Positions 10,038-53,469 of a stretch of 64,000 nucleotides of DNA are shown piece by piece. Where the stretch lies: contig JACPKM010000001.1 of NCBI GenBank assembly GCA_016187025.1, forward strand, positions 245,688 through 309,687, in the 5' to 3' direction. Both the position numbers and the translations under genes were made by a program. This DNA comes from Candidatus Daviesbacteria bacterium (GTDB lineage Bacteria; Patescibacteriota; Microgenomatia; Daviesbacterales; UBA10151). Position 1 is the stretch's first letter. The number at the start of each line of letters is the position of its first letter. The notes beneath the pieces are model-generated. The model was not told the origin of the DNA, made no database searches, and was given only the letters and a program-made list of their open reading frames with translations.

Positions 10038-10805
10038 TCAAATGATGAACTGGCTGACAGTTGTTTCTAAAGACTTTTTATCAATCCGGGTTTTCAGTTT
10101 TTTTAACCAGGTTAAATCAACACAAAACTGTTGAGATATTTCTTCAGGGGAAATCTGCTTCTCAGTCAGCAAAAACAAGATTGGGTCTATTTTATCCCAG
10201 GTTAGAGCGATATTTTCCGGATAGAGTAACCCCTGGTAATTAGTAAGAGGTATGAATTGACCGGGAATATTTAGAAATTGGGCTAGATCATAAAGTTCTG
10301 ACTTGTACAATGAATAAAAAGGCATAAGATGTCCATAAAAACCTTCAGGTCTGTTGCCTAGTAGTCTGTCGCTTTTATCAAAGGTGTCAACTATTACAGC
10401 TTTCATATTCTCCGCTTGAATAGCTGAATGATAATTTATAAAACGTTGATAGAATCTTTTAAGGCTTGCAGGGGTATGCAGTTGATAAGCAGAAATTTCA
10501 GATTGATAAGCTGCACCGCGTTTTAAAATAAAAGTTTCCAGCCCGGAATATTTACAGAGCTCGACCAAGCTATTTGTTTCATCGGTTCCAAAATCAAAAA
10601 TCATTGCCACAATGTTTTCTTTCGATGCTTGTCTGAGTAACGCTCCGGCAACGATAGAATTAATGTCTCCGGATATCCGCACCATGATTTTGTGATGGCC
10701 GTGTTTTGACAAGTACTGGTAATAGTGTTGCAGATAATCAGTTAATTTGGTAACCAGTTGCTCATCAACTGGTTTTTTATATTTAAACAGATTGAGCAGG
10801 TCCAT
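10038..10805 (-). CDS. nadE: NAD+ synthetase (NadE, NH3-dependent) family protein with degenerate PP-loop
   Basis: PP-loop-like RISGDINSIVAGALL (SGGxDS reduced to SGDINS) and the NadE C-terminal pattern VIVDTFDKSDRLLGNRPEGFYGHLMPFYSLYKSELYDLAQFLNIP. Confidence 0.5.
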   Translation of the reverse strand: MDLLNLFKYKKPVDEQLVTKLTDYLQHYYQYLSKHGHHKIMVRISGDINSIVAGALLRQASKENIVAMIFDFGTDETNSLVELCKYSGLETFILKRGAAYQSEISAYQLHTPASLKRFYQRFINYHSAIQAENMKAVIVDTFDKSDRLLGNRPEGFYGHLMPFYSLYKSELYDLAQFLNIPGQFIPLTNYQGLLYPENIALTWDKIDPILFLLTEKQISPEEISQQFCVDLTWLKKLKTRIDKKSLETTVSQFII

Positions 10806-10819
10806 ATCAGGTACTAATA

Positions 10820-11761
10820 TTGTATACTAATTTAATGGATGATAAACTGCCCCCGCCAATCAAAATTACCCCAAACTCCCCGGATATACCTAATCCCCCA
10901 AATGACGATGACCCCATATTTGAGGCTAAAATCAATAACCCCTTTAGTAAATTTTTTAGCTGGATCAAAGATTTCCTTAAAAAACAAAGTAATATAACTA
11001 TTAAAATACCCATTATTGGTATTATCATGGGATTATCAGGTCTGGGGATCGGATGGGGCACAGGATACAACTGGGGTTTTAATACTGCACTTGCTAAACT
11101 ATTTCCCAACTCCTCTCCTGTTTTTCATAGGGCAGTTTCTTTAGAAGGAGTAATTCAAAAATCTGCTTCAGCGCAATTTTATCTAAAATCAGAGGATAAC
11201 TTATGGATTTTGAAACCAAAATCCCCAATCACCCCGGCAATCATAGAAACCTCAGTTGAAAAACAAGTGAAAGTTTTAGGTAATTTAACCAAAGAAGCAA
11301 ACGCTGTTGAAGTCTCAGAAATTATCCCGCTTGAGTCTCCCCAACCTACCCTAACGCCCCTTACCTCCCTTGTAAATTCTTATTCCTCTACTTCTTCTAA
11401 CCCTTCTAATCCCCCTGACTCTGAGCTTAAATTACCGGATCTCTTCACAGGGCTGCAATGGGTATCCACCCAAAAAAAGGTTTTAGTTTTTACCTCGGGT
11501 AAAAGAAGGATGGATGTGGAAGGGTTTCACATTGAATCATCCCAGCTTACTTCTTTCCCTCAGGATTTTATTAACTACTATATTACTGAGCTTAAAAACA
11601 AAGGCTTTAAAGAAACTCTAAATTCTATTAATCCTGAAGGGATAACAGTAACTTATTCCAAAGATGACCTCTTTTTAACTTTTGGAGTCAAAAATATCTA
11701 TCAAGGCAAAGCAGATAAAAAACAACTTGCAGGTTATGTTGCCTATCTAGAACATAATTAA
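10820..11761 (+). CDS. hypothetical membrane protein with Pro-rich N-terminus and extracellular domain
   Basis: 313-aa ORF, TM IKIPIIGIIMGLSGLGIGWG, S/T/P-rich linker; no recognisable family. Confidence 0.4.
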   Translation: MYTNLMDDKLPPPIKITPNSPDIPNPPNDDDPIFEAKINNPFSKFFSWIKDFLKKQSNITIKIPIIGIIMGLSGLGIGWGTGYNWGFNTALAKLFPNSSPVFHRAVSLEGVIQKSASAQFYLKSEDNLWILKPKSPITPAIIETSVEKQVKVLGNLTKEANAVEVSEIIPLESPQPTLTPLTSLVNSYSSTSSNPSNPPDSELKLPDLFTGLQWVSTQKKVLVFTSGKRRMDVEGFHIESSQLTSFPQDFINYYITELKNKGFKETLNSINPEGITVTYSKDDLFLTFGVKNIYQGKADKKQLAGYVAYLEHN

Positions 11762-13657: not shown

Positions 13658-14620
13658 ATGAACAATAAGTTAAGTTTATTGACACAAAAGAAACAAAAGC
13701 TAGATGGTTTTAGACCATTACCTCTAGAATTGGTTAAAAATCTTGATGAATGGTTTAAGGTAGAACTTACCTACACCTCTAATGCCATTGAAGGTAATAC
13801 TCTAACCAGGGCAGAGACAGCCCTAGTAGTAGAAAAAGGTATTACCGTACAAGGTAAGAGTTTAACAGAACATTTAGAGGCGACTAACCATGTTGATGCT
13901 TTGGAATATGTAAAAACACTGGTAGGCAAAAAAAGGCAAGATATAACAGAACAAGATATTTTAGATATAAACAGGCTAATCTTAAATAAGATTGAGGCTG
14001 TTAATGCGGGTAGATATAGGACACAACATGCACGGCTGACTGAAACTGATGTAATTTTACCCAACCCAGTTAAAATTCCAGAGCTTATGGAGGAGTTTAT
14101 GGGATGGCTGGTGGGTGATAATTCAGACCATGTAGCAAAGATAGGGGCTGATGCTCACTTCAAGTTAGTTAGTATTCATCCATTCTCGGATGGGAACGGT
14201 AGGACTTCCCGACTTCTCATGAACTTACTGTTTATGCAAGAAGGCTACCCACCTGCTATAGTCCGTAAAGAAGATAGATTAGCATATATAAACTCCTTGG
14301 AGAAAGCTCAGAAAGGCGGTGGGTTAGATGATTTTTATAATCTAATTTATGAAGCAGTTGACCGCTCGCTGGATATTTATTTAGAGGCACTCCAACCAGA
14401 AAGAGAGAGTTTAGCAGAGCCTATCCCAGCTCAGAGGTTTTATACTACAGATGAGGTGGCAAGATTACTTCAAGTAGATCCAGAGAGTGTTAGAAGATAT
14501 GTCAGGAGAGGGATACTGCGGGCAGTTAAGTTGGGTGGTAAGTTTATTAGAATAGACAAAGCTGATTTAGACAGGTTTATTGAGCAATTAAAAACAACTA
14601 GGACTGGACTTACGCAATAA
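13658..14620 (+). CDS. fic: Fic/DOC family protein with N-terminal inhibitory helix motif and C-terminal excisionase-type HTH
   Basis: Fic motif HPFSDGNGRTSRLLMN; N-terminal SNAIEGN ([S/T]xxxE[G/N] alpha-inh, class II-like); C-terminal YTTDEVARLLQVDPESVRRYVRRGILRAVKLGGKFIRIDKADLDRF resembles excisionase/MerR-family HTH. Confidence 0.75.
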   Translation: MNNKLSLLTQKKQKLDGFRPLPLELVKNLDEWFKVELTYTSNAIEGNTLTRAETALVVEKGITVQGKSLTEHLEATNHVDALEYVKTLVGKKRQDITEQDILDINRLILNKIEAVNAGRYRTQHARLTETDVILPNPVKIPELMEEFMGWLVGDNSDHVAKIGADAHFKLVSIHPFSDGNGRTSRLLMNLLFMQEGYPPAIVRKEDRLAYINSLEKAQKGGGLDDFYNLIYEAVDRSLDIYLEALQPERESLAEPIPAQRFYTTDEVARLLQVDPESVRRYVRRGILRAVKLGGKFIRIDKADLDRFIEQLKTTRTGLTQ

Positions 14621-15291: not shown

Positions 15292-15961
15292 TAAGAATAC
15301 CTGGATTATTGCAAACTGGAAGTCTAACATGACTATTGCTGAGGCTTTGGAGTGGGTTTCAAAAGTTGGATCGGAAATACCCAAGATAGACAATATAAAA
15401 GTAGTTGTTTGCCCAACATTCTCCGCCTTGTCTGAAGTAAAGAAAGCAATACAAATAGGAAATTACCCACTTCTTGTAGGTGCTCAAAACATCTCTCCAT
15501 TTGGGGTAGGTGCATACACAGGAGAAGAAAATGCCCAAACCTTATCTCAGTTTATTGACCTTGCTATTATCGGTCATTCAGAAAGGAGAGAAAATTTTAA
15601 AGAAACAGACGAAATGATTACAAACAAAGTAAATCAAGTGGTGGAAAATAAAATCACACCACTTGTTTGTGTTCAAAATTCTGAAACACCTATACCAGAA
15701 AATTGTAAAATTGTTGCTTACGAGCCTATCTTTGCAATAGGTACAGGTAATCCCGATACTCCGGGAAATGCCGATAAGATAGCAGATGTTTTGAAAGAAA
15801 GATATGGACAGAATTTAGCAGTAATTTATGGAGGTAGTGTTGATTCAGGTAATGTAAAAGGCTTTGTCGCTCAAGAAAACATTGCGGGTGTTTTAGTAGG
15901 AAAAGCCTCTCTTGATGCTGATGAGTTTATTAAAATAATTGCAGCTTGTGATAAAATCTAG
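15275..15961 (+). CDS. tpiA: triosephosphate isomerase
   Basis: IIANWKSN, catalytic AYEPIFAIGTG and IYGGSV motifs; 5' end overlaps atl, exact start uncertain. Confidence 0.75.
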   Translation: MAGGDSKNTWIIANWKSNMTIAEALEWVSKVGSEIPKIDNIKVVVCPTFSALSEVKKAIQIGNYPLLVGAQNISPFGVGAYTGEENAQTLSQFIDLAIIGHSERRENFKETDEMITNKVNQVVENKITPLVCVQNSETPIPENCKIVAYEPIFAIGTGNPDTPGNADKIADVLKERYGQNLAVIYGGSVDSGNVKGFVAQENIAGVLVGKASLDADEFIKIIAACDKI

Positions 15962-17246
15962 GCTCTTTAATAAAATGCACAAGATCAAATTTGCCCAGTC
16001 TGCATCAGAAAACCCACATCAAAAAAAGACGGGCAAAGTTTTTAAAAAACTATCGCCTGTGTTTGTGGTAATCTTTATTTTAACTTTTGGATACTTGTTT
16101 ATTAGTACGTCCTCGGGATTCAAAACTGTTAGTACAGTAACAGACTTTATTGCGAAGCAACAACCTTTGTTGATCTTTCAAAACAGAACCAGTGTCAAAT
16201 CAACCGATAATAAAACAAATATACTACTACTTGGTAATCCTGGTGGTGTACATGCAGGACCATACCTGACCGATACAGTCATGGTGGCATCACTTCTTCA
16301 TAAAGAAAACAAAGTTTATTTAATATCTCTACCCCGTGATCTGTGGGTTGATCAAACCAAAACTAAGTTAAATGCAGTTTATGAGCTGGGATCAAGGAAA
16401 AATAACGGATTAGAATTTAGCAAAAAAATGGTAGGTGATGTTTTAGGTATCCCTATTCATTATGCAGTTAGGGCAGACTTTAGAGGATTTATTAAAGCAA
16501 TTGATGAGCTAGGGGATGTTGAGGTGAGTGTGGACAGAACCTTTGATGATTACAATTATCCAATTTCAGGTAAAGAAGATGATATGTGCGGTAATAAAGA
16601 AGAAGAAAAAGAGTTTAATGAAGAAGAAGCAAAGAAGCTAAATATTTCACCAGGAAAACAGAAAGTATTAATTTTAGCTGCTGGTCAAATAGCAACTGAT
16701 TCAGCAGATCCAGATAAAAGTTCTGATTACTTTGCTTGTAGATTTGAACATATTCATTACGAAAAGGGATTATCATTGATGGATGGAGAGGAAGCTTTAA
16801 TATTTGTTAGATCAAGAAAAGGTACCAACGGAGAAGGATCGGATTTTGCCAGGTCAAAAAGACAGCAAAAAGTTTTAGAGTCAATAAAAGCCAAAGTCTT
16901 GTCTTTTGAAACCTTAACAGATCCAAAAAAGATCTCCTTGCTAATTGATACCTATGGGAATAGTGTTGAAACAGACATTCCAATTATGGATATTTTGGAA
17001 TTTTACAAACTAGTAAAAAAGATAGAGTCTATGAAGGCTCATGTAGTAGACAACTCTGAAAACTCCAAATTACCTGGTGAGAAATTCTCTGTATTGGTAC
17101 AACCAAGAGCATCTGATTATGGGGGCGCCTATGTACTAGTTCCCAGAACTGGTAGGTATGATATTATTCATGAGTTTGTTAATAAAATACTATCAGGAGA
17201 ATTAAATCGATATGAAGCCACTACTGCTGCACGGGTCAGCAATTAA
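15939..17246 (+). CDS. LytR-CpsA-Psr (LCP) family cell-envelope phosphotransferase
   Basis: N-terminal TM, NILLLGNPGG...LTDTVMVASL...SLPRDLWVD core of the LCP domain. Confidence 0.65.
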   Translation: MQLVIKSRLFNKMHKIKFAQSASENPHQKKTGKVFKKLSPVFVVIFILTFGYLFISTSSGFKTVSTVTDFIAKQQPLLIFQNRTSVKSTDNKTNILLLGNPGGVHAGPYLTDTVMVASLLHKENKVYLISLPRDLWVDQTKTKLNAVYELGSRKNNGLEFSKKMVGDVLGIPIHYAVRADFRGFIKAIDELGDVEVSVDRTFDDYNYPISGKEDDMCGNKEEEKEFNEEEAKKLNISPGKQKVLILAAGQIATDSADPDKSSDYFACRFEHIHYEKGLSLMDGEEALIFVRSRKGTNGEGSDFARSKRQQKVLESIKAKVLSFETLTDPKKISLLIDTYGNSVETDIPIMDILEFYKLVKKIESMKAHVVDNSENSKLPGEKFSVLVQPRASDYGGAYVLVPRTGRYDIIHEFVNKILSGELNRYEATTAARVSN

Positions 17247-17859
17247 CACATCTAGAAAAAAGCTTTCAGAGATAAGGCAGAAATTTGAAGATATTACAAC
17301 TTTTGGTAAGAATACATCTTTTCAGGAGCTGGTAGGCAGTTTGATGACAGTTCCCCTGTTATCAGAACAAAGATTAATAATCTTAGAAAACCCACCTGAA
17401 GATTTTGAGTTTGGAGATATTGGAACCCAAACTTTTTTGGCTATCTGGTTTGACCATGAAGTATCAGAAAAGAAAAAAATTATAATTTGGGCCAAACAAA
17501 ATGCCCATGTTTTTTATTTTCCTCCAGAAAAAGAAATAACAATCTTTCCATTCTTGGACTTACTGGCAAATAAAGACAAGAAAGCTTTTGTACAAATTGA
17601 GAAGTTAAAAGAGAGTAAAGATTTTGATAGTTTCTATTTTTTAACAATGTCTTTTTATCTACTAAGAAATTTAACAACTGATTCTAAAGCCATGCCTGTC
17701 TTTGTAAAACAAAAACTGGAAAAACAACGAAAAAACTTTTCTAAGAAAGAAATTAAAAAAATATACAAACAAATTTTAGAGATAGAATACAAGCTTAAAA
17801 ACGGGTTGATGGAGCAGGACCAAGCAGAATTTTTACTGATTTACTCTTTTGTTAATTAG
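17212..17859 (+). CDS. possible DNA polymerase III delta subunit-like protein (short)
   Basis: Weak resemblance to the HolA N-terminal region (LLLHGSAINTSRKKLSEI...QRLIILENP); assignment tentative. Confidence 0.3.
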   Translation: MKPLLLHGSAINTSRKKLSEIRQKFEDITTFGKNTSFQELVGSLMTVPLLSEQRLIILENPPEDFEFGDIGTQTFLAIWFDHEVSEKKKIIIWAKQNAHVFYFPPEKEITIFPFLDLLANKDKKAFVQIEKLKESKDFDSFYFLTMSFYLLRNLTTDSKAMPVFVKQKLEKQRKNFSKKEIKKIYKQILEIEYKLKNGLMEQDQAEFLLIYSFVN

Positions 17860-18796
17860 AGCTTTTTATTTCATCAATTCTTTTGCTGATCAAGTCCAAA
17901 TCTTTTTGATTCACAACACCATCACTGTTTAAATCAGCCCTTTTATCTTTGGGGCTTTTACCAAAGTTTTTTAATACAATTGCATGGTCTGATGCATTAA
18001 TTTTTCCGTCACTATTTAAATCATAAATTACTTCTTTGCTTGATAAAGATGGACTAGGGGACGGGCTTGACTGCTTGGCAGTTAAATCCAGGTTTTGGCC
18101 GATTTTTATTACTCCTATTGTTTCTCCATCTTGTCTAATTTTAAAAATTGCCGTGCCTTGTGAGTCTGCAGAAATGACAATCAGTTTGGCCAAAGTATCT
18201 TCTTCTAATTTAAAAGCATCTCCTAAATCATCGGTCTTCATGTTACTAATTGGAATGATAAAGTTACCAAAATCTTTAATCAGCGATGATTGGGTGGTTG
18301 CTCCGGCAATAGATAGATACACAATGCCATCTTTAAGTGGTTGATTACCTGATACCACAGATCCGATGATAGGTTTAAAACCATTGTTGTCAAGTTTAGG
18401 TGGCGCAGTTTTAAACGTTAAAATCTCACTTGCTTGTCTACCAGCGACAATTTTAAATTTATATTCACTCTGAGGGCTCAAATCCTTTAGGGTGACATAG
18501 TGAATTTGGCGGGGTTGCGGGGTATTAGTGTCTCTATCATCCAAAGCAGTCTTTTCATTCGGAGAGGATAAACCAAAAGTAACAAATCCGGATGTAATTA
18601 CAACTGTTTTCCAGGAAATAATAACGGAATTATCTTCAATGTTTGAGAAAGTAATGTTTTGCGGTGCAGTATCTGGACCAGCAAAACTTGTTATTGTTTG
18701 TTGATTTAAAACCAAAAATACTCCAGCAGAAGTCCCTAAAATTATAATGGCAAGTCCTAGTAAGGTTGGTATTCTAAACTTAGTAAAAAAACTCAT
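17852..18796 (-). CDS. secreted fibronectin-type-III plus dockerin-like (double EF-hand Ca-binding) repeat protein
   Basis: Signal anchor, FN3-like segment (PQNITFSNIEDNSVIISWKT...YKFKIVAG), SPSPSPS linker, two DxNxDGxxNxxD repeats (DLNSDGKINASD, DLNSDGVVNQKD). Confidence 0.55.
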   Translation of the reverse strand: MSFFTKFRIPTLLGLAIIILGTSAGVFLVLNQQTITSFAGPDTAPQNITFSNIEDNSVIISWKTVVITSGFVTFGLSSPNEKTALDDRDTNTPQPRQIHYVTLKDLSPQSEYKFKIVAGRQASEILTFKTAPPKLDNNGFKPIIGSVVSGNQPLKDGIVYLSIAGATTQSSLIKDFGNFIIPISNMKTDDLGDAFKLEEDTLAKLIVISADSQGTAIFKIRQDGETIGVIKIGQNLDLTAKQSSPSPSPSLSSKEVIYDLNSDGKINASDHAIVLKNFGKSPKDKRADLNSDGVVNQKDLDLISKRIDEIKSSN

Positions 18797-20511: not shown

Positions 20512-22152
20512 ATGGTTAAAAATCTTTTTTCTCTTCTGTATTCAAGGCAGACTTCAATTTTATCCGGCGCCTTCATCATGATGGCTACCATGATTTTAGC
20601 AAAGGTATTAGGTCTTGTAAGAGACAGGTTACTAGCGCACACATTCCCACCGGATAGGATCGATATTTTCTGGGCAGCATTTCGTATCCCTGATTTTATA
20701 TTTCAAGTGGTTATTCTGGGAGCTTTATCGGTTGCCTTTATCCCTGTTTTTACTGAACACTTGGAAAACAAGAGTAAAGAAGAAGCCTTTGAATTATCAA
20801 GAGCCTTATTAAATGTTTTTTCATCGGCATTTATTGTTGTAACCTTAGTGATGTTTATTTTTACACAACCAATAATTACCTCTGTTGTTGCTCCCGGATT
20901 TACTGCTGCCAAGCAAGCCCAAGTTGTGGATTTAACCAGAATAATCCTTTTCGGACAGGTGATCTTGGTGTTCGGAGCTTTTTTTATTGGTATTTCACAC
21001 TCTTTCCAAAGGTTTATTGTCCCTTCCTTGGCTCCGGTGCTTTACAACTTAGGGATTATTTTAGGAATTTTTATTTTTGGTAAAGAATTCGGAATACGGG
21101 GGGCAGCATATGGTGTTGTGATCGGTGCACTTTTACATGTTTTAGTGCAGCTTCCTCTTGTTTGGTCCTTAGGCTTTAGATTCAGATTTCCTCCCAGATT
21201 CATACACTCCGGAGTAAAGGAAATTGTGAAGCTGATGAGTATGAGAACTTTTGGACTGGCCGCAGAACAGATAAATGAAACAGTGGGAGCAAGTCTGGCA
21301 TCCTGGGTATCAGGGGGAATAACATATCTAACCTATGCCCAGCATTTGCAAGTTGTGCCGATAGGTCTTTTTGGCGCAACTTTAGCACAGGCTGCCCTTC
21401 CTGTGTTGTCTTCAGAAAAAGCCCGGGGCAGGATAGAAGAGTTTAAAATCACGCTTTTGACAACACTTCACCAGATACTATTTTTGGCGCTTCCTGCAAC
21501 CGCCATTTTAATCGTTATCAGGATACCGGTTGTAAGACTTATTTTTGGTGCCTCGCAGTTTGACTGGGAAGCAACGGTTTTAACAGGCGCAACACTTGCT
21601 TTTCTTTCCATAGGTCTTAGTGCCCAGGCCATATCACTGCTTTTAGTAAGAGGCTTTTATGCGCTGAAAGATACAAAAACCCCTGTTTTTGTATCTTTGT
21701 TTGTAGTGGCTTTAAATATTATTTTGAGCATCTATTTTATTACTTTCCTAAAGCTTGGTGTCTGGAGTATTGGTCTTGCAAACTCCATTTCAGCAATCGT
21801 ATCAGGGGTTTTACTTTTTTGGACTTTACATATAAAGGTAGGTAAATTTGACTTAAAACAAGTACTTTTCCCCTTTTTAAAAATGCTGATGGCTGCAATA
21901 ATTATGGGTGTAGCGATCTATGTTCCAATTAAGCTTTTGGATCAGGTGATTTTTGACACGACCAAAACTATTAATTTATTGGTTTTAACAGGCATCTCTT
22001 CAATGTTTGCTCTCTCGGTTTATGTCGTACTGGTGGGGTTTTTAAAGGTTAGAGAGCTAAAAACCTATGCAGATTTAATCCGGAGAGTAACCAAGTTTCA
22101 GAATAAACTTAAATCGGAAGAGATCATTCCTCCTGAAACTGGTACAGTTTAG
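20512..22152 (+). CDS. murJ: lipid II flippase MurJ
   Basis: Multi-TM protein with MurJ N-terminal signature LGLVRDRLLAHTFPPDRIDIFWAAFRIPDFIFQVVILGALSVAFIPVF. Confidence 0.8.
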   Translation: MVKNLFSLLYSRQTSILSGAFIMMATMILAKVLGLVRDRLLAHTFPPDRIDIFWAAFRIPDFIFQVVILGALSVAFIPVFTEHLENKSKEEAFELSRALLNVFSSAFIVVTLVMFIFTQPIITSVVAPGFTAAKQAQVVDLTRIILFGQVILVFGAFFIGISHSFQRFIVPSLAPVLYNLGIILGIFIFGKEFGIRGAAYGVVIGALLHVLVQLPLVWSLGFRFRFPPRFIHSGVKEIVKLMSMRTFGLAAEQINETVGASLASWVSGGITYLTYAQHLQVVPIGLFGATLAQAALPVLSSEKARGRIEEFKITLLTTLHQILFLALPATAILIVIRIPVVRLIFGASQFDWEATVLTGATLAFLSIGLSAQAISLLLVRGFYALKDTKTPVFVSLFVVALNIILSIYFITFLKLGVWSIGLANSISAIVSGVLLFWTLHIKVGKFDLKQVLFPFLKMLMAAIIMGVAIYVPIKLLDQVIFDTTKTINLLVLTGISSMFALSVYVVLVGFLKVRELKTYADLIRRVTKFQNKLKSEEIIPPETGTV

Positions 22153-24147: not shown

Positions 24148-25125
24148 ATGAAAGTTATTAAGCCAAAAAAGCTAAATAAAGGAGATACCATTGGCATTGT
24201 TGCATCTTCTTTACCAGTTCTCCCTGTTTTCAAAAAAAATTACGAGCAAGGTAAAAAAGTAATTAAAGATTTAGGATTTAAAATTAAAGAAGGGGAAACA
24301 ATCGGTAAGCAAAGATGGTGGATGGCAGGGACTCCAAAAGAAGTAGCAGAGGATATTAATAATATGTTTGCTGATAAAGGCGTTAAAGCCATTATGGCCC
24401 AAACTGGTGGTTATTCTGCTATTTCTGTCTTGGAGCATCTAGACTATGAACTTATAACTCAAAACATAAAACCTTTTGTTGGTATGTCTGATATGACCGC
24501 ATACCATTTAGCAATTTTTGCTAAAACTGGAATGGTGGGTTTTCATATGGATGATGTAACCTTTGGTCTTGGTATGAATGCATCATCTGGTAAAGATAAA
24601 AAACTTTTAGAATTTGATGAAGAGATGTTTATAAAGTTTTTAACCAGAACAGATCCACCCGGAATTATTAAACCCTTAACAGAATGGGAGGAATGGAAAA
24701 AAGGAAAAGCTAAAGGTCATTTAATTGGAGGAATATTGCAACTTCTCACAAGACACATAGGTACACCATATTTTCCGAAATTGGAGGAATTTGATGGAGC
24801 TATTCTATTTTGGGAGGAAGTGGGTAAAGAAAGATATGAAATTGCCAGATGTCTTTATCAGCTTAAATATGCTGGTATATTAGATAGAATTTCTGGGATG
24901 TTAATAGGTAAAATAAAATATGTAAAACCGATTAGAGATCAGGAGGTGAGGGAGCCTGAAGTTAAAGATTTAGTTTTGGAAATACTAAAAGATTACAAAT
25001 TTCCTATAATGCAAAATTTGGACTTTGGTCATTTTACTGTCAATATCCCTATGCCAATTGGAACCAAAGTGGAATTTGATACAAAAAATCTGTTGCTTAA
25101 TTTTTTGGAGTCTCCGGTTTCTTAA
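24148..25125 (+). CDS. ldcA: LD-carboxypeptidase (S66 family, LdcA-like)
   Basis: N-terminal GDTIGIVASS, nucleophile segment GMSDMTAYH, C-terminal DFGH motif. Confidence 0.7.
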   Translation: MKVIKPKKLNKGDTIGIVASSLPVLPVFKKNYEQGKKVIKDLGFKIKEGETIGKQRWWMAGTPKEVAEDINNMFADKGVKAIMAQTGGYSAISVLEHLDYELITQNIKPFVGMSDMTAYHLAIFAKTGMVGFHMDDVTFGLGMNASSGKDKKLLEFDEEMFIKFLTRTDPPGIIKPLTEWEEWKKGKAKGHLIGGILQLLTRHIGTPYFPKLEEFDGAILFWEEVGKERYEIARCLYQLKYAGILDRISGMLIGKIKYVKPIRDQEVREPEVKDLVLEILKDYKFPIMQNLDFGHFTVNIPMPIGTKVEFDTKNLLLNFLESPVS

Positions 25126-46083: not shown

Positions 46084-46722
46084 ATGAGAACAGTAGGACA
46101 GATTTTAAAAGACGAAAGAGAAAGGAAACTGCTTAAGCTGGAAGAAGTAGAAAAAGCAACCAAGATTAGAAAAGAATTACTTGAGGCATTAGAAAAAGAT
46201 GAGTACCATAGACTACCTCCGCCCACCTTTGTCCAGGGATTTATCAAAAACTACGGAAGATTTTTAAGCCTTGATACAGAAAAATTACTGGCAATTTATA
46301 GAAGGGAGTTTTCGGATCGGAAAAACCCGCCAAAAATAATGGAAGCTTGGACTAATCCTATTGACAAGAAAAGATTTAAAATTACCCCCTCTAAAGCTTT
46401 AGGTGCAGTAGTTTTTTCCCTGATAGTCACCTTTTTGATTTATCTTTGGATTGAATACCGGTTTTTGGTAGGTGCTCCTTTTTTGGAAGTGATATCTCCT
46501 TCTAACCAGTTTACTACCAGTAATGCTGTGGTTGTAGTAAAGGGTAAAACTGACCCAGAAGCAAAAGTTATGATAAACAATCAAGAGATTCAAGTTGATA
46601 TCTCGGGAAATTTTTCCCAAGAGGTCAAATTAAATGGCAGTGCCAATCAGCTAGTTATAACCTCAACTGGTAAGTCAGGGAAATCAAGCAGAGTTGAGAA
46701 AATGGTATTTCTAAAACCGTAG
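46084..46722 (+). CDS. rodZ: RodZ-like bitopic protein (N-terminal XRE-type HTH, TM, C-terminal domain)
   Basis: GQILKDERERKLLKLEEVEKATKIRKELLEALEKD HTH, TM ALGAVVFSLIVTFLIYLWI. Confidence 0.5.
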   Translation: MRTVGQILKDERERKLLKLEEVEKATKIRKELLEALEKDEYHRLPPPTFVQGFIKNYGRFLSLDTEKLLAIYRREFSDRKNPPKIMEAWTNPIDKKRFKITPSKALGAVVFSLIVTFLIYLWIEYRFLVGAPFLEVISPSNQFTTSNAVVVVKGKTDPEAKVMINNQEIQVDISGNFSQEVKLNGSANQLVITSTGKSGKSSRVEKMVFLKP

Positions 46723-46757: not shown

Positions 46758-47054
46758 ATGGATTTGTTACAAATTGCCCTGGTTTTTTTAATTGTCCTTT
46801 TATCTATTTTCCTGGCTATTACAGGGTTTCAGGTTTTTTTAATCTTAAGAGATTTAAAAAAAGCTTTAGATAAGCTAAATAGAATTATTGAAACAGGAGA
46901 AGAGATTGCTCAAGACATTGAAAGACCTGTACATGCAGCGTCAACTTTAGTTTCCACAATTTCAGAAGGGGCAAAGGCCTTGATAAAAGGTGAGAAAAAG
47001 GAGAGTAAAAGAGACTTACCAAAACCCCGCCGCTTCTATAAGCGAACTCTATAA
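46758..47054 (+). CDS. small membrane protein with C-terminal basic tail
   Basis: N-terminal TM LQIALVFLIVLLSIFLAITGF, helical remainder. Confidence 0.35.
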   Translation: MDLLQIALVFLIVLLSIFLAITGFQVFLILRDLKKALDKLNRIIETGEEIAQDIERPVHAASTLVSTISEGAKALIKGEKKESKRDLPKPRRFYKRTL

Positions 47055-47071
47055 AGATATATAATACCCCC

Positions 47072-48928
47072 ATGACCTCTAAAGAACTAAGAGCAAAATA
47101 TTTAAATTTTTTTAAAACTCGGAACCATAAAGTTATTGATCCAGCTCCACTTGTTTTAGAAAAAGATCCTACCACTCTTTTTACTTCATCCGGTATGCAG
47201 CCGCTTATTCCTTACTTGATGGGTAAAAAACACCCAAAAGGTAAAAGACTGGTGGATTCTCAACCTTCCTTTAGGGCAGAAGATATGGATGAGGTTGGGG
47301 ATAATCGTCATACTACTATGTTTGAGATGTTGGGTAACTGGTCTTTAGGGGACTATTTTAAAAAAGAGCAGCTTAAATGGTTTTGGATGTTTTTGACTGA
47401 GGAGCTAAGGTTTGACACTGCTAAATTATATGTTTCTGTTTTTGAGGGGAATGAGTTTGTGGAAAAAGATGAAGAGACTTTAAGCATATGGAAAAGTTTG
47501 GGGGTTGTAGAAGATCATATATATTTTTACGGAGTTGAAAAAAACTGGTGGTCCCGTTCAGGTACACCAGACCAGATGCCTGTTGGTGAGATTGGCGGGC
47601 CAGATTCTGAAGTGTTTTATGATTTTGGTACCCCACATAATTCACGGTTTGGTGATAAATGTCATCCTAATTGTGATTGCGGAAGGTTTTCTGAAATTGG
47701 AAATTCTGTTTTTATCCAGTATAAAAAAGTAGGTGACGGGCAATTTGAAAAATTACCTCAACAAAATGTTGATTTTGGAGGGGGCTTGGAAAGACTTGTT
47801 GGAGCTACTTTCAATACCCCAGATGTTTTTCAAACGGACTTGTTCATTCCTATTATTGAAAGACTGGAGGAGCAAACTGGCAAAAAATACCAAAAAGATG
47901 ATAACTTTACAAATATTTTTAGAATTGCTTCAGATCATATAAAAGCTGCAACATTTTTAATAAAGAGTGGGATTTTACCTTCAAATAAATTGCAAGGTTA
48001 TGTTTTAAGGAGGCTGTTAAGAAGAACTGCAGTCAAGCTTACCCAAGTTGGTTTTGACCCAGTATTAATACTGCCAAAACTTGTTGATCCAGCAATTGAT
48101 ATATATCAAGGCACTGATTATTTTAAAACAGGGGATTGGGACTCAATTCGCCAAGTTATTGAAGATGAGCTTAAAAAATTCCAGCAAACTCTAAAAAAGG
48201 GATTAAAAGAAGTAGAGAAATTGCAAGAGATTAATGGAAAAATAGCTTTTGATCTTTATCAAACTTATGGATTTCCTTGGGAATTAACAGAGGAGTTGTT
48301 TGACAAAAAAGGACAAAATATAGACAAAATCCAGTTTGAAGAGGAGTTTGAAAAACACCGTGAGCTATCAAGAACAGCATCAGCTGGTACTTTCAAAGGG
48401 GGTTTGGCAGGGCATTCTGAGGCAGAGATTAAATACCATACAGCTACTCATCTTCTACACCAGGCTTTAAGAGATATATTGGGTCCAAAGGTTTTTCAAA
48501 ATGGCTCTAATATCAACCAGGAAAGATTGAGATTTGATTTTTCATTTGATAGAAAAATGACTGATGAGGAAATAAAGCAAGTGGAGGATTTAATAAACCA
48601 AAAAATAAAAGAAGATCTTAGGGTTGATCATAAAACTGTCCCTATAGAAGATGCAAGAAAACTAGGTGCCATAGGGCTATTTGATGAAAAGTATGGCAAA
48701 GATGTCAGTATTTATGCTGTTGGTCCAAATTATCATCTAGATCCTGGGGCAAAAGATCAAAGAGATAGAGGAGGTTATTATTCACTTGAGTTTTGCGGTG
48801 GACCACATGTTGCTCATACTGGTGAGATAGGTGGGGTTAAAATTACTAAAGAAGAAGCAATTTCTCAAGGGATAAGAAGGATAAGGGCAGAATTGATTAG
48901 TGTAGAACAGACACGGATGTTGTGTTAA
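47072..48928 (+). CDS. alaS: alanine--tRNA ligase (catalytic, tRNA-recognition and editing domains; no C-Ala domain)
   Basis: N-terminal class II motifs (FFKTRNHKVIDPAPLV...DPTTLFTSSGMQP), editing-domain HTATHLLHQAL and CGGPHV. Confidence 0.85.
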   Translation: MTSKELRAKYLNFFKTRNHKVIDPAPLVLEKDPTTLFTSSGMQPLIPYLMGKKHPKGKRLVDSQPSFRAEDMDEVGDNRHTTMFEMLGNWSLGDYFKKEQLKWFWMFLTEELRFDTAKLYVSVFEGNEFVEKDEETLSIWKSLGVVEDHIYFYGVEKNWWSRSGTPDQMPVGEIGGPDSEVFYDFGTPHNSRFGDKCHPNCDCGRFSEIGNSVFIQYKKVGDGQFEKLPQQNVDFGGGLERLVGATFNTPDVFQTDLFIPIIERLEEQTGKKYQKDDNFTNIFRIASDHIKAATFLIKSGILPSNKLQGYVLRRLLRRTAVKLTQVGFDPVLILPKLVDPAIDIYQGTDYFKTGDWDSIRQVIEDELKKFQQTLKKGLKEVEKLQEINGKIAFDLYQTYGFPWELTEELFDKKGQNIDKIQFEEEFEKHRELSRTASAGTFKGGLAGHSEAEIKYHTATHLLHQALRDILGPKVFQNGSNINQERLRFDFSFDRKMTDEEIKQVEDLINQKIKEDLRVDHKTVPIEDARKLGAIGLFDEKYGKDVSIYAVGPNYHLDPGAKDQRDRGGYYSLEFCGGPHVAHTGEIGGVKITKEEAISQGIRRIRAELISVEQTRMLC

Positions 48929-48954
48929 GATTACTTTGACACCTAAAAACTTAG

Positions 48955-51222
48955 GTGAATTTTGATATGAGTTTACTAAGTAACCTCTCTGCCCGGTTAG
49001 GCTTAGGGAAAAAAGAGGAACATCCAGAATACTATTTTGCTATAAACATTGGACCCCAAAGTTTAACAGCAGCTTTATGGGCGATAGAACATAACCAACT
49101 TAAGGTAATTAACACCTCATCTTTCGAGTACTCATCAATGGAGGAAATAATTTCTGTTGTTGATAAACTTCTAGGAGAGTTACTAAGCAATGATTACCCA
49201 GAACCTCAAAAGGTTTTATTTGGAGTTCCAGACTCTTGGTTGCAAGATGAAGATTTACAGGAATCATATATGAAGTTTTTGAGAAGACTGGTAAAAGAGC
49301 TAGAGTTAACTCCAATGGCTTATGTAGCATCATCACATGCCCTTTCCCATTTCCTAGAAAAACAAACTGGTACTCCGACAACAGCAATCTTAGTAGGCTT
49401 GGATGAAAAATACGTTACAGTTACTGTAGTTAGAGCTGGAAAGCTTGATACTAGCAAAGTGTCACAAAGAGGCAACAATTTAGGAGAAGATATTGAAAAG
49501 CTGTTACTGAGCTTTACTGCAATAGAAGTTTTACCTTCAAAAATAATCCTTTATGGAAATGATCATCTAGGTTTAGATAAGCATAAAAATCAACTACTTG
49601 AGTATTCTTGGATGTCGAAATTGTCTTTCTTGCACGTTCCTAAAATCGAGTCTCTAGGTGAAAATGTTGAGATAGATTCAGTGGCGTTTGCTGGAGCAGT
49701 TGAACTCAATCCGGCAGTAGAGTTTAAAAAATTACATGCAAAAGAAGATAAAGATTTTAAACCAATGAGCGAAGAAGAAATAATTGAGCAAGTTGAAGAA
49801 GTAGAAGAAGAAAAAAAAGGTGAAGTTAGCAAGGAGTTAAAAGATATAGAAGAGGATAGCAAGTATGAAGCGGCAGAAAAAGAAGTAAATATCAATAAAG
49901 TTTCAGCAGAAGAATTAGGGTTTGTCACAGGCGATATAAGAGAGACTAATTTAGTTGTACCTGAGGCTGAAGATTTTGAAAAAGATATGATTACTACCCC
50001 TCCTGCCTATGATATTTCTACCAAAAAAGCTGCAGGTTTGGGAAAAAAGCTCAAATTTATACAGTTTTTAAGCATTAAAGACTATATAAAAGGAAGAGGA
50101 ATCTATCTTTCTATAGTTATTTCGGTTTTTCTTTTATTGCTGGGTGGGTACCTATTTTTATTAAAGTCTGATGTCAAAGTTTTTGTCGAACCACAAATAC
50201 TAGAAAAAGATGCTCAAATAGTTGCAGATCCGGCTATTAAAGAAGTAAATGAAGCAGACAATAAAATTCCAGGACAATCAGTCGATATTAGGATAAATGG
50301 TACTGGTAAAGGAGCTGCTACTGGAACTAAACAGGTTGGAGATCCTGCTAAGGGAACTGTTGTTGTTTACAACAAAACTTTTGAGCCTAAAAGTTTTAGC
50401 AAGGGAACTACCTTAACAGCAGCAAATGGGTTTAAATACACACTTGATGTCAATGTAAATATTGCTTCTCAATCTGCAAGCGATAGTGGAATTTCCTTTG
50501 GTAAAGCGAATGCCGAAGTAACAGCAGCAAATATTGGGGCAGATGGTAATCTGCCTTCTGGAAGCGATTTAAACTTTACTAATTTTTCTTCTTCACAGGT
50601 TGGGGTTAAAGCAGAAGGTAATTTTTCAGGGGGAACAAGTAAAGAGGTTACAGTTGTTTCGGATGCTGACCAAAAGAAATTACTGGCCCAGGTTGCATCA
50701 GACTTAAAAGGGCAAGCCAAAGCAAAGTTACAAGAAAAATATCCCGATAAGAAGATTTTAGAGGAAGCATTGCAAGAAGAGATAGTTAAAAAAACATTTA
50801 GTAAAAATATCAATGATCAAGCAAGTGAGCTGTCTTTGGATTTAACAGTCAACTTTAAAGGAACAGCTTTTGAAGATAAGGATTTAAAGCAGCTGGTGTC
50901 AAAGCTTGTTTCAGTTAATGTTCCAGAAGGCTTTGAGCTAAACTTAGCAGAAACCGAAACCTTAGCTGATGTATCAAAATTAGAAAAAGATGGAAGACTG
51001 GTATTTTTGGCAAGGTTTAAGGCAAAGCTTATTCCCAAGGTAGATATTTCAGAAATTAAAAAACTAATAAGAGGTAAGACTCCTTTGCAGGTGGAAGAGA
51101 TTCTAAAAAGAAATGAACATATCTTAGGAACAGAGATAAAGCTTATCCCCTCCTTGCCGTCAGTACTTCAGAGACTGCCAATATTTGATAAAAACATTAG
51201 GGTAGAGGTAGGCCTTAAATGA
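48955..51222 (+). CDS. large bitopic membrane protein: about 375-aa cytoplasmic N-terminal region (possibly actin-like FtsA/PilM-like fold), one TM, about 355-aa extracellular C-terminal region
   Basis: TM IYLSIVISVFLLLLGGYLFLL near residue 380; N-terminus YYFAINIGPQSLTAALWAIEHNQLKVINTS resembles the first strand-loop of actin-like ATPases (weak); acidic linker. Confidence 0.5.
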   Translation: MNFDMSLLSNLSARLGLGKKEEHPEYYFAINIGPQSLTAALWAIEHNQLKVINTSSFEYSSMEEIISVVDKLLGELLSNDYPEPQKVLFGVPDSWLQDEDLQESYMKFLRRLVKELELTPMAYVASSHALSHFLEKQTGTPTTAILVGLDEKYVTVTVVRAGKLDTSKVSQRGNNLGEDIEKLLLSFTAIEVLPSKIILYGNDHLGLDKHKNQLLEYSWMSKLSFLHVPKIESLGENVEIDSVAFAGAVELNPAVEFKKLHAKEDKDFKPMSEEEIIEQVEEVEEEKKGEVSKELKDIEEDSKYEAAEKEVNINKVSAEELGFVTGDIRETNLVVPEAEDFEKDMITTPPAYDISTKKAAGLGKKLKFIQFLSIKDYIKGRGIYLSIVISVFLLLLGGYLFLLKSDVKVFVEPQILEKDAQIVADPAIKEVNEADNKIPGQSVDIRINGTGKGAATGTKQVGDPAKGTVVVYNKTFEPKSFSKGTTLTAANGFKYTLDVNVNIASQSASDSGISFGKANAEVTAANIGADGNLPSGSDLNFTNFSSSQVGVKAEGNFSGGTSKEVTVVSDADQKKLLAQVASDLKGQAKAKLQEKYPDKKILEEALQEEIVKKTFSKNINDQASELSLDLTVNFKGTAFEDKDLKQLVSKLVSVNVPEGFELNLAETETLADVSKLEKDGRLVFLARFKAKLIPKVDISEIKKLIRGKTPLQVEEILKRNEHILGTEIKLIPSLPSVLQRLPIFDKNIRVEVGLK

Positions 51223-51869
51223 TTGCTTATGGCAAATCCCTTTCCTTAGTCCTTTTATTTCTGGGGGTTTTTGCAATAAGCCAGGTAGTATTTCCTTGGG
51301 TAAGTTTTAAGTTATGGGAGTTTAGAGGACAATATGAGGGCAATACTTATTTAACTAGTCCTCAGTTAACGAAAAACCAGGAAATACTTGGAGTCTCAAT
51401 TAAAAACAAAGCTAATTTTTCACAAATTGTATCATCTGCTACCAGAGTTAAACCGGCTTCTTATACACGCTTTAGCTTGATAATTCCCAGCATAAAATTA
51501 GATAATGAGACAGTTTATGTGGATACAAACGATCTTTCCCATGGTTTAGTGCATTTACCAGGATCTGCTCTTCCGGGTGAAAAAGGAAATGTATTTGTCT
51601 CTGGTCACTCTGCCCTACCTTCATATATTGGTCCTAAGGCAAAAGCGTTATTTGCAAACCTGCCGAAAGTTAAAAAAGGAGAAAAAATAATCATAGAAAC
51701 AGAAGGGGTAATATATAACTATCTGGTTGATTCTATAAAAGTTATTGACCCAAAGGACCTATCCGTTATTACCCCTCCTGACACTCAGGGTAGATTTATT
51801 ACTTTAATGACTTGCGTACCTCCTGGATTTAATACAAAACGCTTGATAGTTGTTGGTAAAATGATCTGA
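51219..51869 (+). CDS. sortase-family transpeptidase
   Basis: N-terminal TM, catalytic His region (VFVSGHSA) and TLMTCVP (TLxTC) cysteine motif; overlaps upstream gene by 4 nt. Confidence 0.6.
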   Translation: MIAYGKSLSLVLLFLGVFAISQVVFPWVSFKLWEFRGQYEGNTYLTSPQLTKNQEILGVSIKNKANFSQIVSSATRVKPASYTRFSLIIPSIKLDNETVYVDTNDLSHGLVHLPGSALPGEKGNVFVSGHSALPSYIGPKAKALFANLPKVKKGEKIIIETEGVIYNYLVDSIKVIDPKDLSVITPPDTQGRFITLMTCVPPGFNTKRLIVVGKMI

Positions 51870-52264
51870 TGCACTATTTAGGAGTTGATTTTGGTTTAAG
51901 AAAAATAGGTCTTGCAGTATCAGACGGAGAGATTGCATCCCCTTGGAAGATTATTGAAGCAAAAAGTTTAGATTCTGCTGTGGAACAGTTGTACTCCCTG
52001 ATTGTGCAAGAGGGGTTTGGTGAGGTAGTTGTTGGTATACCCGAAAGTGGAAAAATTGTTGGTGTTATAAAAAGGGTTATTAACAAATTAAAAAAAAGAG
52101 GGGTAAAAATAGAGCAAGTTGATGAGACCCTTTCTTCAAAATTAGGGCAGCGGAAAATGATAGAGTTAAATCTTTCCAAAAAAAAGAGAAGGTATAATGA
52201 TGCTTTTGCGGCAGCAGAGATATTGCAAAGTTTTTTAGATCAAAAAATAAAGGATGAAATGTAA
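51869..52264 (+). CDS. ruvX: Holliday-junction-resolvase-like RuvX/YqgF
   Basis: LGVDFGLRKIGLAVSD N-terminus with catalytic Asp; 131 aa. Confidence 0.8.
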   Translation: MHYLGVDFGLRKIGLAVSDGEIASPWKIIEAKSLDSAVEQLYSLIVQEGFGEVVVGIPESGKIVGVIKRVINKLKKRGVKIEQVDETLSSKLGQRKMIELNLSKKKRRYNDAFAAAEILQSFLDQKIKDEM

Positions 52265-52267
52265 TAA

Positions 52268-53224
52268 ATGAGAAAATTACTATCTATTTTTTTAATTGTA
52301 TCTTTTTTGGGAGTAGTTGTATGGGGTTGGTGGAATAATCAGTTATCTGCCCCGTCTTTTAGAAAAGAAACAAAAAAAATAGTTATTCCAAAAGGTACTG
52401 GGCTTAGTACTGTCTCTTCACAACTAAAAAAAGAGAATTTAATTAAATCTGAGCTAGCTTTTAAGCTTTTTGCCAGACAAAAAGGTTTGGCTGACAAACT
52501 GCAAACTGGAACATTTGAGCTTTCTTCTTCCATGAGTGCAGAAGAGGTTTTAAAAACCTTAACGTCTAATCCGAAAGAGGTTTGGGTAACTTTTCTGGAA
52601 GGATGGCGGGTAGAGGAGATGGCACAAAAACTTGGAGAGCAGTTAGGGATAAAAAAGGAGGATTTTTTAGAATATGCAAAAGAAGGTTATATGTTTCCTG
52701 ATACGTATTTGTTTCCAGATGAGGTAACAGCTGCCAGGGTTGCGGATATCATGAAGGATAATTTTAAGAATAAATATTCGGCTGAGCTGAGGAGTAAAAT
52801 TAAATCTCAAGGTTTAACAGAGCAAGAGGGTGTGGTTTTGGCATCAATTGTAGAAAGAGAGGCAAGGTCCGATATTGCAAGAACTGAAGTTGCCGGAATT
52901 TTGCTGAAAAGACTCAAGATTAATATGGGTCTTAATGCTGATGCTACTATCCAATATGCTCTTGGATACCAACCAAAAGAAAGGAGTTGGTGGAAGCGAA
53001 ACCTAACTTATGATGATTTAAAAATAGACTCTGTCTATAACACCTATATTCATGCTGGTTTACCCCCAACTCCAATTTGCAACCCTTCTCTTTCATCACT
53101 AAAAGCTGTTGCTAATGCAAACTCCTCTACGCCTTATCTTTATTACTTGCATGATTCCAAAGGAAACTCGTATTATGCAAAAACTTTGGAAGGTCATAAC
53201 CAAAACATAGCCAATCATCCATGA
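52268..53224 (+). CDS. mltG: endolytic murein transglycosylase MltG (YceG family)
   Basis: N-terminal TM, YceG domain with YLFPDTY motif. Confidence 0.8.
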   Translation: MRKLLSIFLIVSFLGVVVWGWWNNQLSAPSFRKETKKIVIPKGTGLSTVSSQLKKENLIKSELAFKLFARQKGLADKLQTGTFELSSSMSAEEVLKTLTSNPKEVWVTFLEGWRVEEMAQKLGEQLGIKKEDFLEYAKEGYMFPDTYLFPDEVTAARVADIMKDNFKNKYSAELRSKIKSQGLTEQEGVVLASIVEREARSDIARTEVAGILLKRLKINMGLNADATIQYALGYQPKERSWWKRNLTYDDLKIDSVYNTYIHAGLPPTPICNPSLSSLKAVANANSSTPYLYYLHDSKGNSYYAKTLEGHNQNIANHP

Positions 53225-53469
53225 AAAAAGTAAAACTTGGTGTATATCGTCATTATAAGGGTAATTACTATCTTGTTCTTGGGGTTGCCCAGCATAGCGA
53301 AGATTTAACACAAGAATTTGTGGTATATAAACCTTTATATAAAAGTTTGGTAGTGACAGATTTATGTATTAGACCTAAAGATATGTTTTTAGAAAAAGTA
53401 CAGCTAGGAAAAAAGCTTGTTCCCAGATTTAAATTTCAGAGCGTAAGCTCGCATACTGAAAGTCCTTGA
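53221..53469 (+). CDS. DUF1653 domain protein
   Basis: YRHYKGNYYLVLGVAQHSEDLTQEFVVYKPLY matches the DUF1653 signature. Confidence 0.55.
   Translation: MKKVKLGVYRHYKGNYYLVLGVAQHSEDLTQEFVVYKPLYKSLVVTDLCIRPKDMFLEKVQLGKKLVPRFKFQSVSSHTESP

Follow-up and report, generated by a model that had tools for sequence, protein, structure and literature searches.

A bitopic protein joining an actin-like fold to a Baseplate J/gp47-like module, encoded beside a sortase in Microgenomates

What do a large membrane-spanning protein and a sortase do between alaS and the ruvX-mltG genes of Candidatus Daviesbacteria? In the window analysed here, a stretch of 64,000 nucleotides, the gene for an N-in bitopic protein, hereafter X (48967..51222, + strand), is followed by a sortase gene (51219..51869, +). 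Upstream lies alaS in a short form of 618 aa (47072..48928, +), and downstream are ruvX/YqgF (51869..52264, +) and mltG/YceG for an endolytic transglycosylase (52268..53224, +), all conserved neighbours. The original prediction had described a protein of 755 aa and a coupled sortase at this site, and both are present: the stop codon of X (TGA, 51220-51222) and the start codon of the sortase (ATG, 51219-51221) overlap as ATGA, through which the sortase is translationally coupled to X. A further overlap of 1 nt (TGATG) joins the sortase stop to the ruvX start. The longest open reading frame of X (48955..51222, +) gives 755 aa if read from the GTG at 48955, which lies within the Shine-Dalgarno sequence AGGTGA (48953..48958, +), 8 nt upstream of the ATG at 48967. 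The true start is almost certainly this ATG, giving 751 aa, and the public protein P0001, named 'baseplate J/gp47 family protein [Ca. Daviesbacteria]', has the same 751 aa with 100% identity. A hairpin of 7 bp (48940-48957), whose 3' arm is this Shine-Dalgarno sequence, was not above chance, and a scan for promoters and terminators found nothing exceeding shuffled sequences. The GC content of the locus (0.36) equals the flanking base composition, giving no hint of recent insertion.

The two sides of X

X contains only one hydrophobic segment, a transmembrane helix at residues 379-401 (50101..50169, +; residues 383-405 in the 755-aa numbering), and the K/R-rich stretch on its N-terminal side points to a topology with the N-terminus inside and the C-terminus outside. 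The cytoplasmic part consists of a minimal actin-like (ASKHA) domain at residues about 21-247 (49027..49707, +) and an acidic, variable and probably disordered linker at residues 248-378 (49708..50100, +). This linker of 131 residues carries 33 D/E and 22 K/R, and includes a short linear motif, GFVTGD (49918..49935, +), whose G and F each show conservation of 90% or more among 177 family members. The acidic linker, single transmembrane helix and large ectodomain proposed earlier are all found in the sequence.

The N-terminal half had also been likened to actin-like ATPases of the FtsA/PilM type, of which the fold holds and the ATPase probably does not. Structure comparison of this half gave an actin-like fold with FtsA and PilM as the best PDB matches; X shares the PilM-type actin fold with PilM and the two-lobed actin/ASKHA fold with FtsA (S. 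aureus 3wqt, E. coli 7q6d, T. maritima 1e4f). The model fits into about 230 residues, its two lobes being bare beta-beta-beta-alpha-beta-alpha-beta-alpha units, and leaves no room for the 1C and 2B subdomain inserts, so that X differs from FtsA in this reduced form and in the loss of the phosphate-2 and adenosine motifs. Moreover, FtsA has an amphipathic helix, whereas X has a true transmembrane helix and an ectodomain of 350 aa. In the profile alignment to the FtsA-like partner of the split form described below, X has VGLDEKYVT in place of the phosphate-2 motif DIGGGTTD and LYGNDH in place of the adenosine motif CGGGA. At phosphate-1, X has NIG where DIG is expected, at a position that is not conserved across the X family. 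Judging from the replaced phosphate-2 and adenosine motifs, X is probably not an ATPase. Against PDB, fold comparison alone succeeded; sequence searches with X, its N-domain profile and its C-domain profile gave nothing meaningful. The N-domain profile did not match E. coli FtsA by hhalign (probability 0.08%), X had no match at the thresholds of Pfam FtsA and TIGR01174 or to Pfam PilM_2 and T2SSL, and NCBIfam holds no family for X.

The outer 350 residues (residues 402-751; 50170..51219, +) are a complete, full-length Baseplate J/gp47-like wedge module. By Foldseek, the ectodomain aligned to whole wedge proteins (345 columns for a 347-residue target and 354 for one of 356 residues; probability 1.0), and it shares the whole-protein wedge fold with the contractile-tail proteins Baseplate J/gp47/gpJ/T4 gp6 (Mu gp47 9ki1, phi812 9euf, diffocin TRI-2 8v3w). 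The predicted model of this domain has a modest pTM of 0.56 and, since its relative domain orientation is not that of the wedge proteins, reaches low TM-scores against them (about 0.24). The match to Pfam Baseplate_J (PF04865) is marginal in X itself (22.0 bits against a gathering score of 21.1, covering profile positions 19-113 only), and its relatives score 27.5-35.8 bits. PHROG_6 also matches the ectodomain, as does the GlxA barrel: the single beta-barrel is common to X and GlxA (Streptomyces lividans 4unm, PF21110), although X lacks the copper oxidase propeller. In contrast to the wedge proteins, to which its sequence identity is 12-21%, X is cellular, membrane-anchored and exposed outside the cell, and no gp25/gpI-type partners or tail genes lie beside it, its neighbours being housekeeping genes only. 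Extrapolating from the phage proteins, the ectodomain may oligomerise. The baseplate-like identity of this half was absent from the original prediction.

The sortase and its place beside X

The downstream protein (216 aa) has an N-terminal transmembrane anchor and scores 83 bits on Pfam Sortase (cutoff 26.6). Its triad is present as H130, C199 and R208, with C199 lying in the TLMTC sequence that had been taken as catalytic. Among the NCBIfam class models, the best are class C (84.7 bits) and class E (66.7 bits), with cutoffs of 160, so that it stays below every class cutoff; it ends just past the strand of the catalytic Arg and thus lacks the C-terminal transmembrane segment of class C.

X had been judged no obvious substrate for want of an LPxTG-type signal, and this view is borne out: it has no C-terminal sorting signal, and its transmembrane helix lies upstream of the ectodomain (N-in), the reverse of substrate topology. 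An NLPSG segment in X was rejected as a sorting motif, being conserved but not LPxTG and with a proline that is not conserved, and the C-terminal lysine varies across the family. The proposed search for other proteins with a C-terminal sorting signal covered the window and 85 related loci and yielded nothing credible, only spurious antisense ORFs. SafA of Actinomyces is a membrane protein adjoining the housekeeping sortase SrtA. Like X, it is encoded beside a sortase without being its substrate, but SafA is small and has no actin-like or baseplate-like domains, and no homology is implied.

The X family forms a large number of clusters, 4756 at 50% identity (E<=1e-3), and the co-occurrence suggested as a check was recovered. 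Of the 72 GTDB species loci that could be assessed, 62 have a sortase next to X, as do all nine distant relatives looked up; the six of these taken into tblastn have about 26-29% identity. In three distant relatives (L081, L086 and L088) the order is SBP-X-sortase-class A PBP, and neither alaS nor ruvX nor mltG lies nearby. Start/stop overlaps between X and the sortase are frequent across loci. On the other hand, nine species loci, all from one Daviesbacteria subclade, have no adjacent sortase, and neither have the split forms; the function of X is thus not strictly dependent on a neighbouring sortase. In more than 80 species X has a fixed position in the housekeeping array, among whose genes are those for FtsK, a RodZ-like protein and MltG. 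Such tight packing of unrelated housekeeping genes weakens any argument from guilt by association.

Separate genes in other bacteria and the fusion origin of X

In candidate division WS6, related metagenome contigs and Halanaerobiaceae, the two halves of X are found as separate coupled genes, one for an intact FtsA-like ATPase and one for a bitopic Baseplate-J-like protein. In two of these loci (L089 and L090), the FtsA-like protein retains DIGT, DIGGGTTD and CGGGA, and the ectodomain of its coupled bitopic partner aligns with that of X over 334 columns (probability 98.5%, E 3e-15). The N-domain profile of X likewise matches the split FtsA-like partner (probability 94.3%, E 1e-7), with LLEYSWMSKLSFLHVPKIE aligned to MLEYPWRKNLPFATVPKIE. 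The pair is adjacent in 41 of 41 assessable metagenome loci, which were found by a scan with the FtsA-like alignment; a metagenome scan with the alignment of the split ectodomain gave no match. The FtsA-like partners match Pfam PilM_2, and their best NCBIfam model is ftsA (70-93 bits against a cutoff of 176), in line with their public annotation as FtsA. None of the split-form loci, Halanaerobiaceae included, has an adjacent sortase.

X is therefore the product of a fusion between the two genes of an older pair, one coding for an FtsA-like ATPase and the other for a Baseplate-J-like bitopic protein, and both the fusion and the sortase partner are seen solely in Microgenomates. The gene order in Halanaerobiaceae is alaS-IreB-[unknown]-FtsA-like-BaseplateJ-like-ruvX-DUF1292-mltG. 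The idea of an insertion specific to this lineage does not survive, since the split module occurs in these other bacteria and, in Halanaerobiaceae, at the same alaS-ruvX-mltG site.

Readings of the module

The analysis shows how X is built and folded, that it arose by fusion and that its pairing with the sortase is conserved; we infer its scaffolding role, its oligomerisation and its functional link to the sortase and to wall synthesis. On the likeliest reading, X would be a scaffold without catalytic function that spans the membrane and is connected with growth of the cell wall, and a role in envelope assembly or anchoring is plausible. More specifically, we tentatively propose, at a confidence close to but short of even, that the X-sortase locus is a conserved two-gene envelope module of Microgenomates in which the X scaffold works with the sortase. 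X would be an N-in bitopic scaffold made of a reduced FtsA/PilM-type actin fold, an acidic tether with the GF..D motif, a transmembrane helix and an outer wedge module. It may act as a connector in the manner of PilM-PilN, GspL or FtsA, linking an assembly or partner of the actin type in the cytoplasm to an oligomeric platform outside the cell. This platform might be placed at sites of wall growth, as MltG, class A PBP and FemAB among the neighbours suggest, and in Microgenomates it could position or regulate a sortase attaching surface proteins other than X.

A different reading makes X a variant component of the divisome, which tethers or organises the Z-ring and replaces or supplements FtsA, with the transmembrane helix in place of the amphipathic helix, an ectodomain that talks to wall enzymes and a merely incidental sortase. 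FtsA is indeed the best structural match of X, and ftsA is the best NCBIfam model and FtsA the public annotation of the split-form partner; the flexible tether and membrane anchor mirror the layout of FtsA, and FtsK, the RodZ-like protein and MltG belong to the conserved array. However, X has neither the 1C and 2B inserts nor the nucleotide motifs, the split-form proteins fall far under the FtsA cutoff of 176 bits, and tblastn of the loci found no ftsZ or ftsA within 8 kb of X in any of them. Halanaerobiaceae, as members of Bacillota, are expected to have canonical ftsA-ftsZ too, which also counts against this role, and we consider it unlikely. Quite unlikely, too, is that X and the sortase are functionally unrelated genes sharing a compact housekeeping operon. 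The absence of a sortase in the nine species loci and all split forms, the clearly unrelated functions of the alaS and ruvX neighbours and the lack of a sortase substrate nearby (in the window and 85 loci) would all fit such chance adjacency, but the adjacency outlives full turnover of the neighbours in L081, L086 and L088, still holds where X proteins share about 26% identity and is frequently accompanied by start/stop overlaps.

Even less probable is that X serves a pilus or fibre, either as an alignment protein like PilM-PilN or GspL or as the base, in the membrane, of a fibre polymerised by a sortase. In type II secretion, GspL is a fused actin-like-transmembrane-periplasmic analogue, and the best class model of the sortase is that of the pilin polymerases. 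Nevertheless, the sortase stays below every class cutoff and lacks the C-terminal transmembrane segment of class C, and X matches neither PilM_2 nor T2SSL. Outside the membrane, PilN and GspL have a ferredoxin-like fold where X has the Baseplate-J fold, and the pilus or secretion ATPase, platform and pilin genes of those systems are not near X: no PilB/C/T/O, pilin, GspE/F or LPxTG protein was found among the roughly 40 ORFs scanned in the window or in the gene tables of related loci. Finally, the public name suggests a remnant of a prophage or contractile injection system, and in its favour X does match baseplate wedge proteins in Pfam, PHROG and fold comparisons. This origin is effectively refuted by the composition equal to the flanks, the conserved synteny fixed in housekeeping surroundings in more than 80 species, the absence of any relative from IMG/VR viral contigs, the lack of any other phage or tail gene adjoining X and its fusion to a transmembrane helix and an actin-like domain.

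Returning to the scaffold reading, a broader version is rather unlikely: an actin-like ATPase with a membrane-anchored Baseplate-J-like ectodomain could be an unrecognised, ancient envelope-spanning apparatus of Patescibacteria and Halanaerobiaceae, welded genomically to the ruvX-mltG wall locus and acting on either side of the membrane to organise division or the growth of the wall. It might be related, as a cellular protein, to the contractile-injection wedge protein or be a domesticated form of it, reduced in Microgenomates to a single pseudo-ATPase polypeptide that recruited a sortase.

A large part of bacterial diversity belongs to Patescibacteria, yet very little is known of the biology of their cell envelopes; this large family has a fixed place beside wall-processing genes. 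X joins an FtsA/PilM-type actin fold to a surface-displayed phage baseplate wedge, a combination not previously reported, and our search of the literature on sortase, FtsA, baseplate, pili and actin-like proteins of Patescibacteria, CPR and Microgenomates found no description of the family. The Halanaerobiaceae with the split form include cultured members, so that the system could be accessible to experiments. If the ectodomain forms wedge-like rings, this would bear on the origin of contractile-tail baseplate proteins, and it would reveal the way in which ultra-small cells link filaments in the cytoplasm to assembly at the surface and to anchoring by sortase.

Folds and topology of the bitopic protein

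The open reading frame at 48955..51222 (+) encodes 755 aa if read from GTG, and the true start of this gene (X) is almost certainly ATG 48967 (751 aa), because the GTG falls within an AGGTGA Shine-Dalgarno sequence (48953-48958, +) placed 8 nt ahead of that ATG, and because the identical public protein P0001, whose source is named as a Candidatus Daviesbacteria (Microgenomates, Patescibacteria), has 751 aa. The original prediction had placed the protein and a sortase between alaS and ruvX-mltG, and Pfam and NCBIfam bore this out: alaS (47072..48928), the sortase (51219..51869; Pfam 83 bits against a cutoff of 26.6), RuvX (51869..52264) and YceG/MltG (52268..53224) are all on the + strand. The supposed translational coupling of X and sortase is seen in their ATGA overlap; the sortase stop and ruvX start overlap as TGATG. 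The sortase retains H130, C199 (in TLMTC) and R208, and the base composition of X equals that of its flanks. The 38-nt alaS-X spacer contains a 7-bp hairpin (48940..48957), no better than the chance expectation of the scan, whose 3' arm is the AGGTG of the Shine-Dalgarno and which could occlude the ribosome-binding site. The alaS is of the short type (618 aa, NCBIfam NF002436); the 873-aa alaS ORF of a Halanaerobiaceae locus (L129) has a C-terminal extension that is missing here.

X has a single hydrophobic helix (residues 383-405, 755-aa numbering), preceded by Lys/Arg-rich sequence, which indicates an N-in topology. The linker ahead of the helix (131 residues, 33 D/E and 22 K/R) is acidic as predicted. 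In an alignment of 177 diverse family members, this linker is variable except for a short GF..D motif, whose G and F are each conserved to at least 90%. FLHFPKIE is also conserved, as are numerous positions of the ectodomain; the phosphate-1 position and C-terminal lysine are variable. Since its topology is reversed relative to sortase substrates and a sorting signal is absent, X is not a canonical substrate, as had been suspected.

Pfam found only Baseplate_J in X (residues 461-564), marginally at 22.0 bits against 21.1; NCBIfam gave no family, and PDB sequence and profile searches no match. Because sequence methods revealed little, the two conserved blocks were modelled separately from homologue alignments. 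The N-domain model matched S. aureus FtsA (score 17.3), P. aeruginosa PilM (16.5), E. coli FtsA (15.1), EutJ (14.9) and the Hsp70 family protein Ssb1 (14.8). With FtsA and PilM on top, the guess of an actin-like fold was correct. The nucleotide motifs are degenerate; the domain is a minimal core of ~230 residues with no space for subdomains 1C and 2B. The extracellular half, whose nature was not visible from the sequence alone, is by its model a complete Baseplate J/gp47-like module, because Foldseek aligned it end-to-end with whole wedge proteins (phi812 wedge: 345 columns of a 347-residue target, E 3e-7; Mu gp47: 354 of 356, E 2e-5; probability 1.0 for both) and PHROG_6 'baseplate wedge subunit' also matched. 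The TM-scores are low (~0.24), because domain orientations differ.

Split gene pairs and the origin of the fusion

Two peripheral relatives of X, P0386 and P0387 (26% identical to each other), begin with a different, small cytoplasmic domain, which an acidic linker and a TM helix connect to the ectodomain known from X (P0386 against the X ectodomain profile in hhalign: probability 98.5%, E 3e-15, 334 columns). Directly upstream on their contigs, overlapping by 4-35 nt, is a separate FtsA/PilM-like gene (413 or 437 aa) with intact DIGT, DIGGGTTD and CGGGA motifs, which matches Pfam FtsA and PilM_2 and scores 88 and 70 bits with NCBIfam ftsA, under the cutoff of 176. The X N-domain profile aligned with this partner at probability 94.3% (E 1e-7), against 0.08% for E. 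coli FtsA as a control. The alignment includes a striking LLEYSWMSKLSFLHVPKIE versus MLEYPWRKNLPFATVPKIE, and places VGLDEKYVT of X opposite DIGGGTTD and LYGNDH opposite CGGGA. By these sequence comparisons, X is a fusion of an older gene pair.

The FtsA-like pair, used to scan metagenomes, gave 43 loci; in all 41 that include downstream sequence, the next gene encoded a bitopic Baseplate-J-like protein. By source names they belong to candidate division WS6, unclassified 'bacterium' MAGs and Halanaerobiaceae. The gene order in the latter is alaS - IreB - [690-749 aa, no Pfam] - FtsA-like - Baseplate_J-like - ruvX - DUF1292 - mltG - O-methyltransferase - peptidase U32, so the module is at the same alaS-ruvX-mltG site in this Bacillota family; its Baseplate_J-like protein matches the X ectodomain (hhalign probability 98.2%). 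No sortase match was found in split-form loci. Taken together, this makes the module both old and widely distributed. The proposal of a lineage-specific system therefore fails for the module itself; only in Microgenomates were the two genes seen fused, the nucleotide motifs lost and a sortase present as partner. The 670-749-aa protein directly upstream of the Halanaerobiaceae pair, between IreB and ruvX (L129 3826..5898, L130 3935..5947, L132 844..3093), had no Pfam or NCBIfam match; the unfused system may include it as a third part. PilN and FtsN use docking peptides on PilM and FtsA; GF..D of X and a DFS motif common to split-form linkers look like such peptides by analogy.

Sortase pairing across the family

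An exhaustive HMMER search found 4756 family clusters at 50% identity (E<=1e-3; 1277 with E<=1e-30), with the full-length architecture retained to ~28% identity. By their source names, members fall into several Microgenomates groups: Daviesbacteria, Roizmanbacteria, Shapirobacteria, 'Microgenomates group' and 'Patescibacteria group'. Scanning a single genome for each GTDB species yielded 76 loci with X; together with six distant loci looked up individually, these were searched by tblastn with the window's proteins, and 72 were assessable. The sortase lies directly downstream of X in 62 of the 72, often with overlapping stop and start, is displaced in one, and is absent within 8 kb in nine, all from one Daviesbacteria subclade (X 37-52% identical to ours) in which alaS is mostly inverted. 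It also follows X immediately in 9/9 more distant relatives looked up individually, the six above among them. The expected co-occurrence across relatives thus holds. In three distant loci (L081, L086, L088) the order is VanW/PG_binding_4 - solute-binding protein - X - sortase - class A PBP. Since the sortase follows X where every other neighbour differs, the adjacency exceeds passive synteny, yet is not obligatory. In the sortase-less subclade (L047-L051, L053, L054, L063, L065, L067) ruvX comes directly after X, and the flanks, where available, hold no sortase within 8 kb; here the partner has been lost or relocated in nature, which could serve comparative tests. A Shapirobacteria locus (L087) has a second sortase gene (10525..11172) right after mltG.

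The array RNase J - FtsK - RodZ-like - YtxH-like - alaS - X - sortase - ruvX - mltG - rpoB/C is conserved in several Microgenomates loci. Upstream of alaS, the RodZ-like protein (46084..46722; HTH_25, TM helix, Glucodextran_B/Big-type domain) and the 98-aa YtxH-like protein (46758..47054) recur in order in most of the Daviesbacteria loci, and also in distant Microgenomates loci. A DUF1653 gene (53221..53469) overlapping the mltG end by 4 nt was found only in three window-identical contigs, with no match in other related loci.

Wall context and possible roles

Wall genes are scattered in the window: FemAB (1456..2502, -), LytR_cpsA_psr (15939..17246), MurJ (20512..22152) and LD-carboxypeptidase (24148..25125). 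From these genes, the organism is predicted to make a peptidoglycan wall with interpeptide bridges, the usual sortase acceptor. Elsewhere, a nucleotidyltransferase (Polbeta/MNT, 4269..4676) overlaps a HepT-like RNase (4666..5088) as in type VII toxin-antitoxin modules, one protein fuses Fic/DOC and HTH_17 DNA-binding domains (13658..14620), and another (17852..18796, -) carries a type I dockerin along with fn3/purple-acid-phosphatase-N-type domains, which is unusual in a Patescibacteria genome of small size.

X is associated with wall genes (MltG, class A PBP, FemAB, VanW), and may be a non-catalytic trans-membrane scaffold like PilM-PilN/GspL or FtsA-type connectors. Its wedge-like outer module would form an oligomeric platform, which in Microgenomates would place the sortase where new wall is made, or regulate it there. 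We hold this overall reading tentatively, as a real possibility. FtsA heads the structural matches, and a tether of the divisome is unlikely but deserves some weight. That X and the sortase are unrelated neighbours is quite doubtful: the pairing is not obligatory, yet it persists in rearranged surroundings. PilM is the second match, and a platform for a pilus or fibre is improbable. The phage-like fold might suggest a phage remnant; with the place of X in a housekeeping array fixed across more than 80 species and its composition equal to that of its flanks, we consider this extremely improbable.

Public databases list X as 'hypothetical' or as a 'baseplate J/gp47 family protein', and they annotate the separate FtsA-like partner as 'FtsA' or 'PilM'; searches of the full-text literature yielded no account of this family or its architecture. 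We rate X among the bitopic actin-like adaptors, and there is a reasonable chance that its system is a distinct, ancient envelope apparatus.
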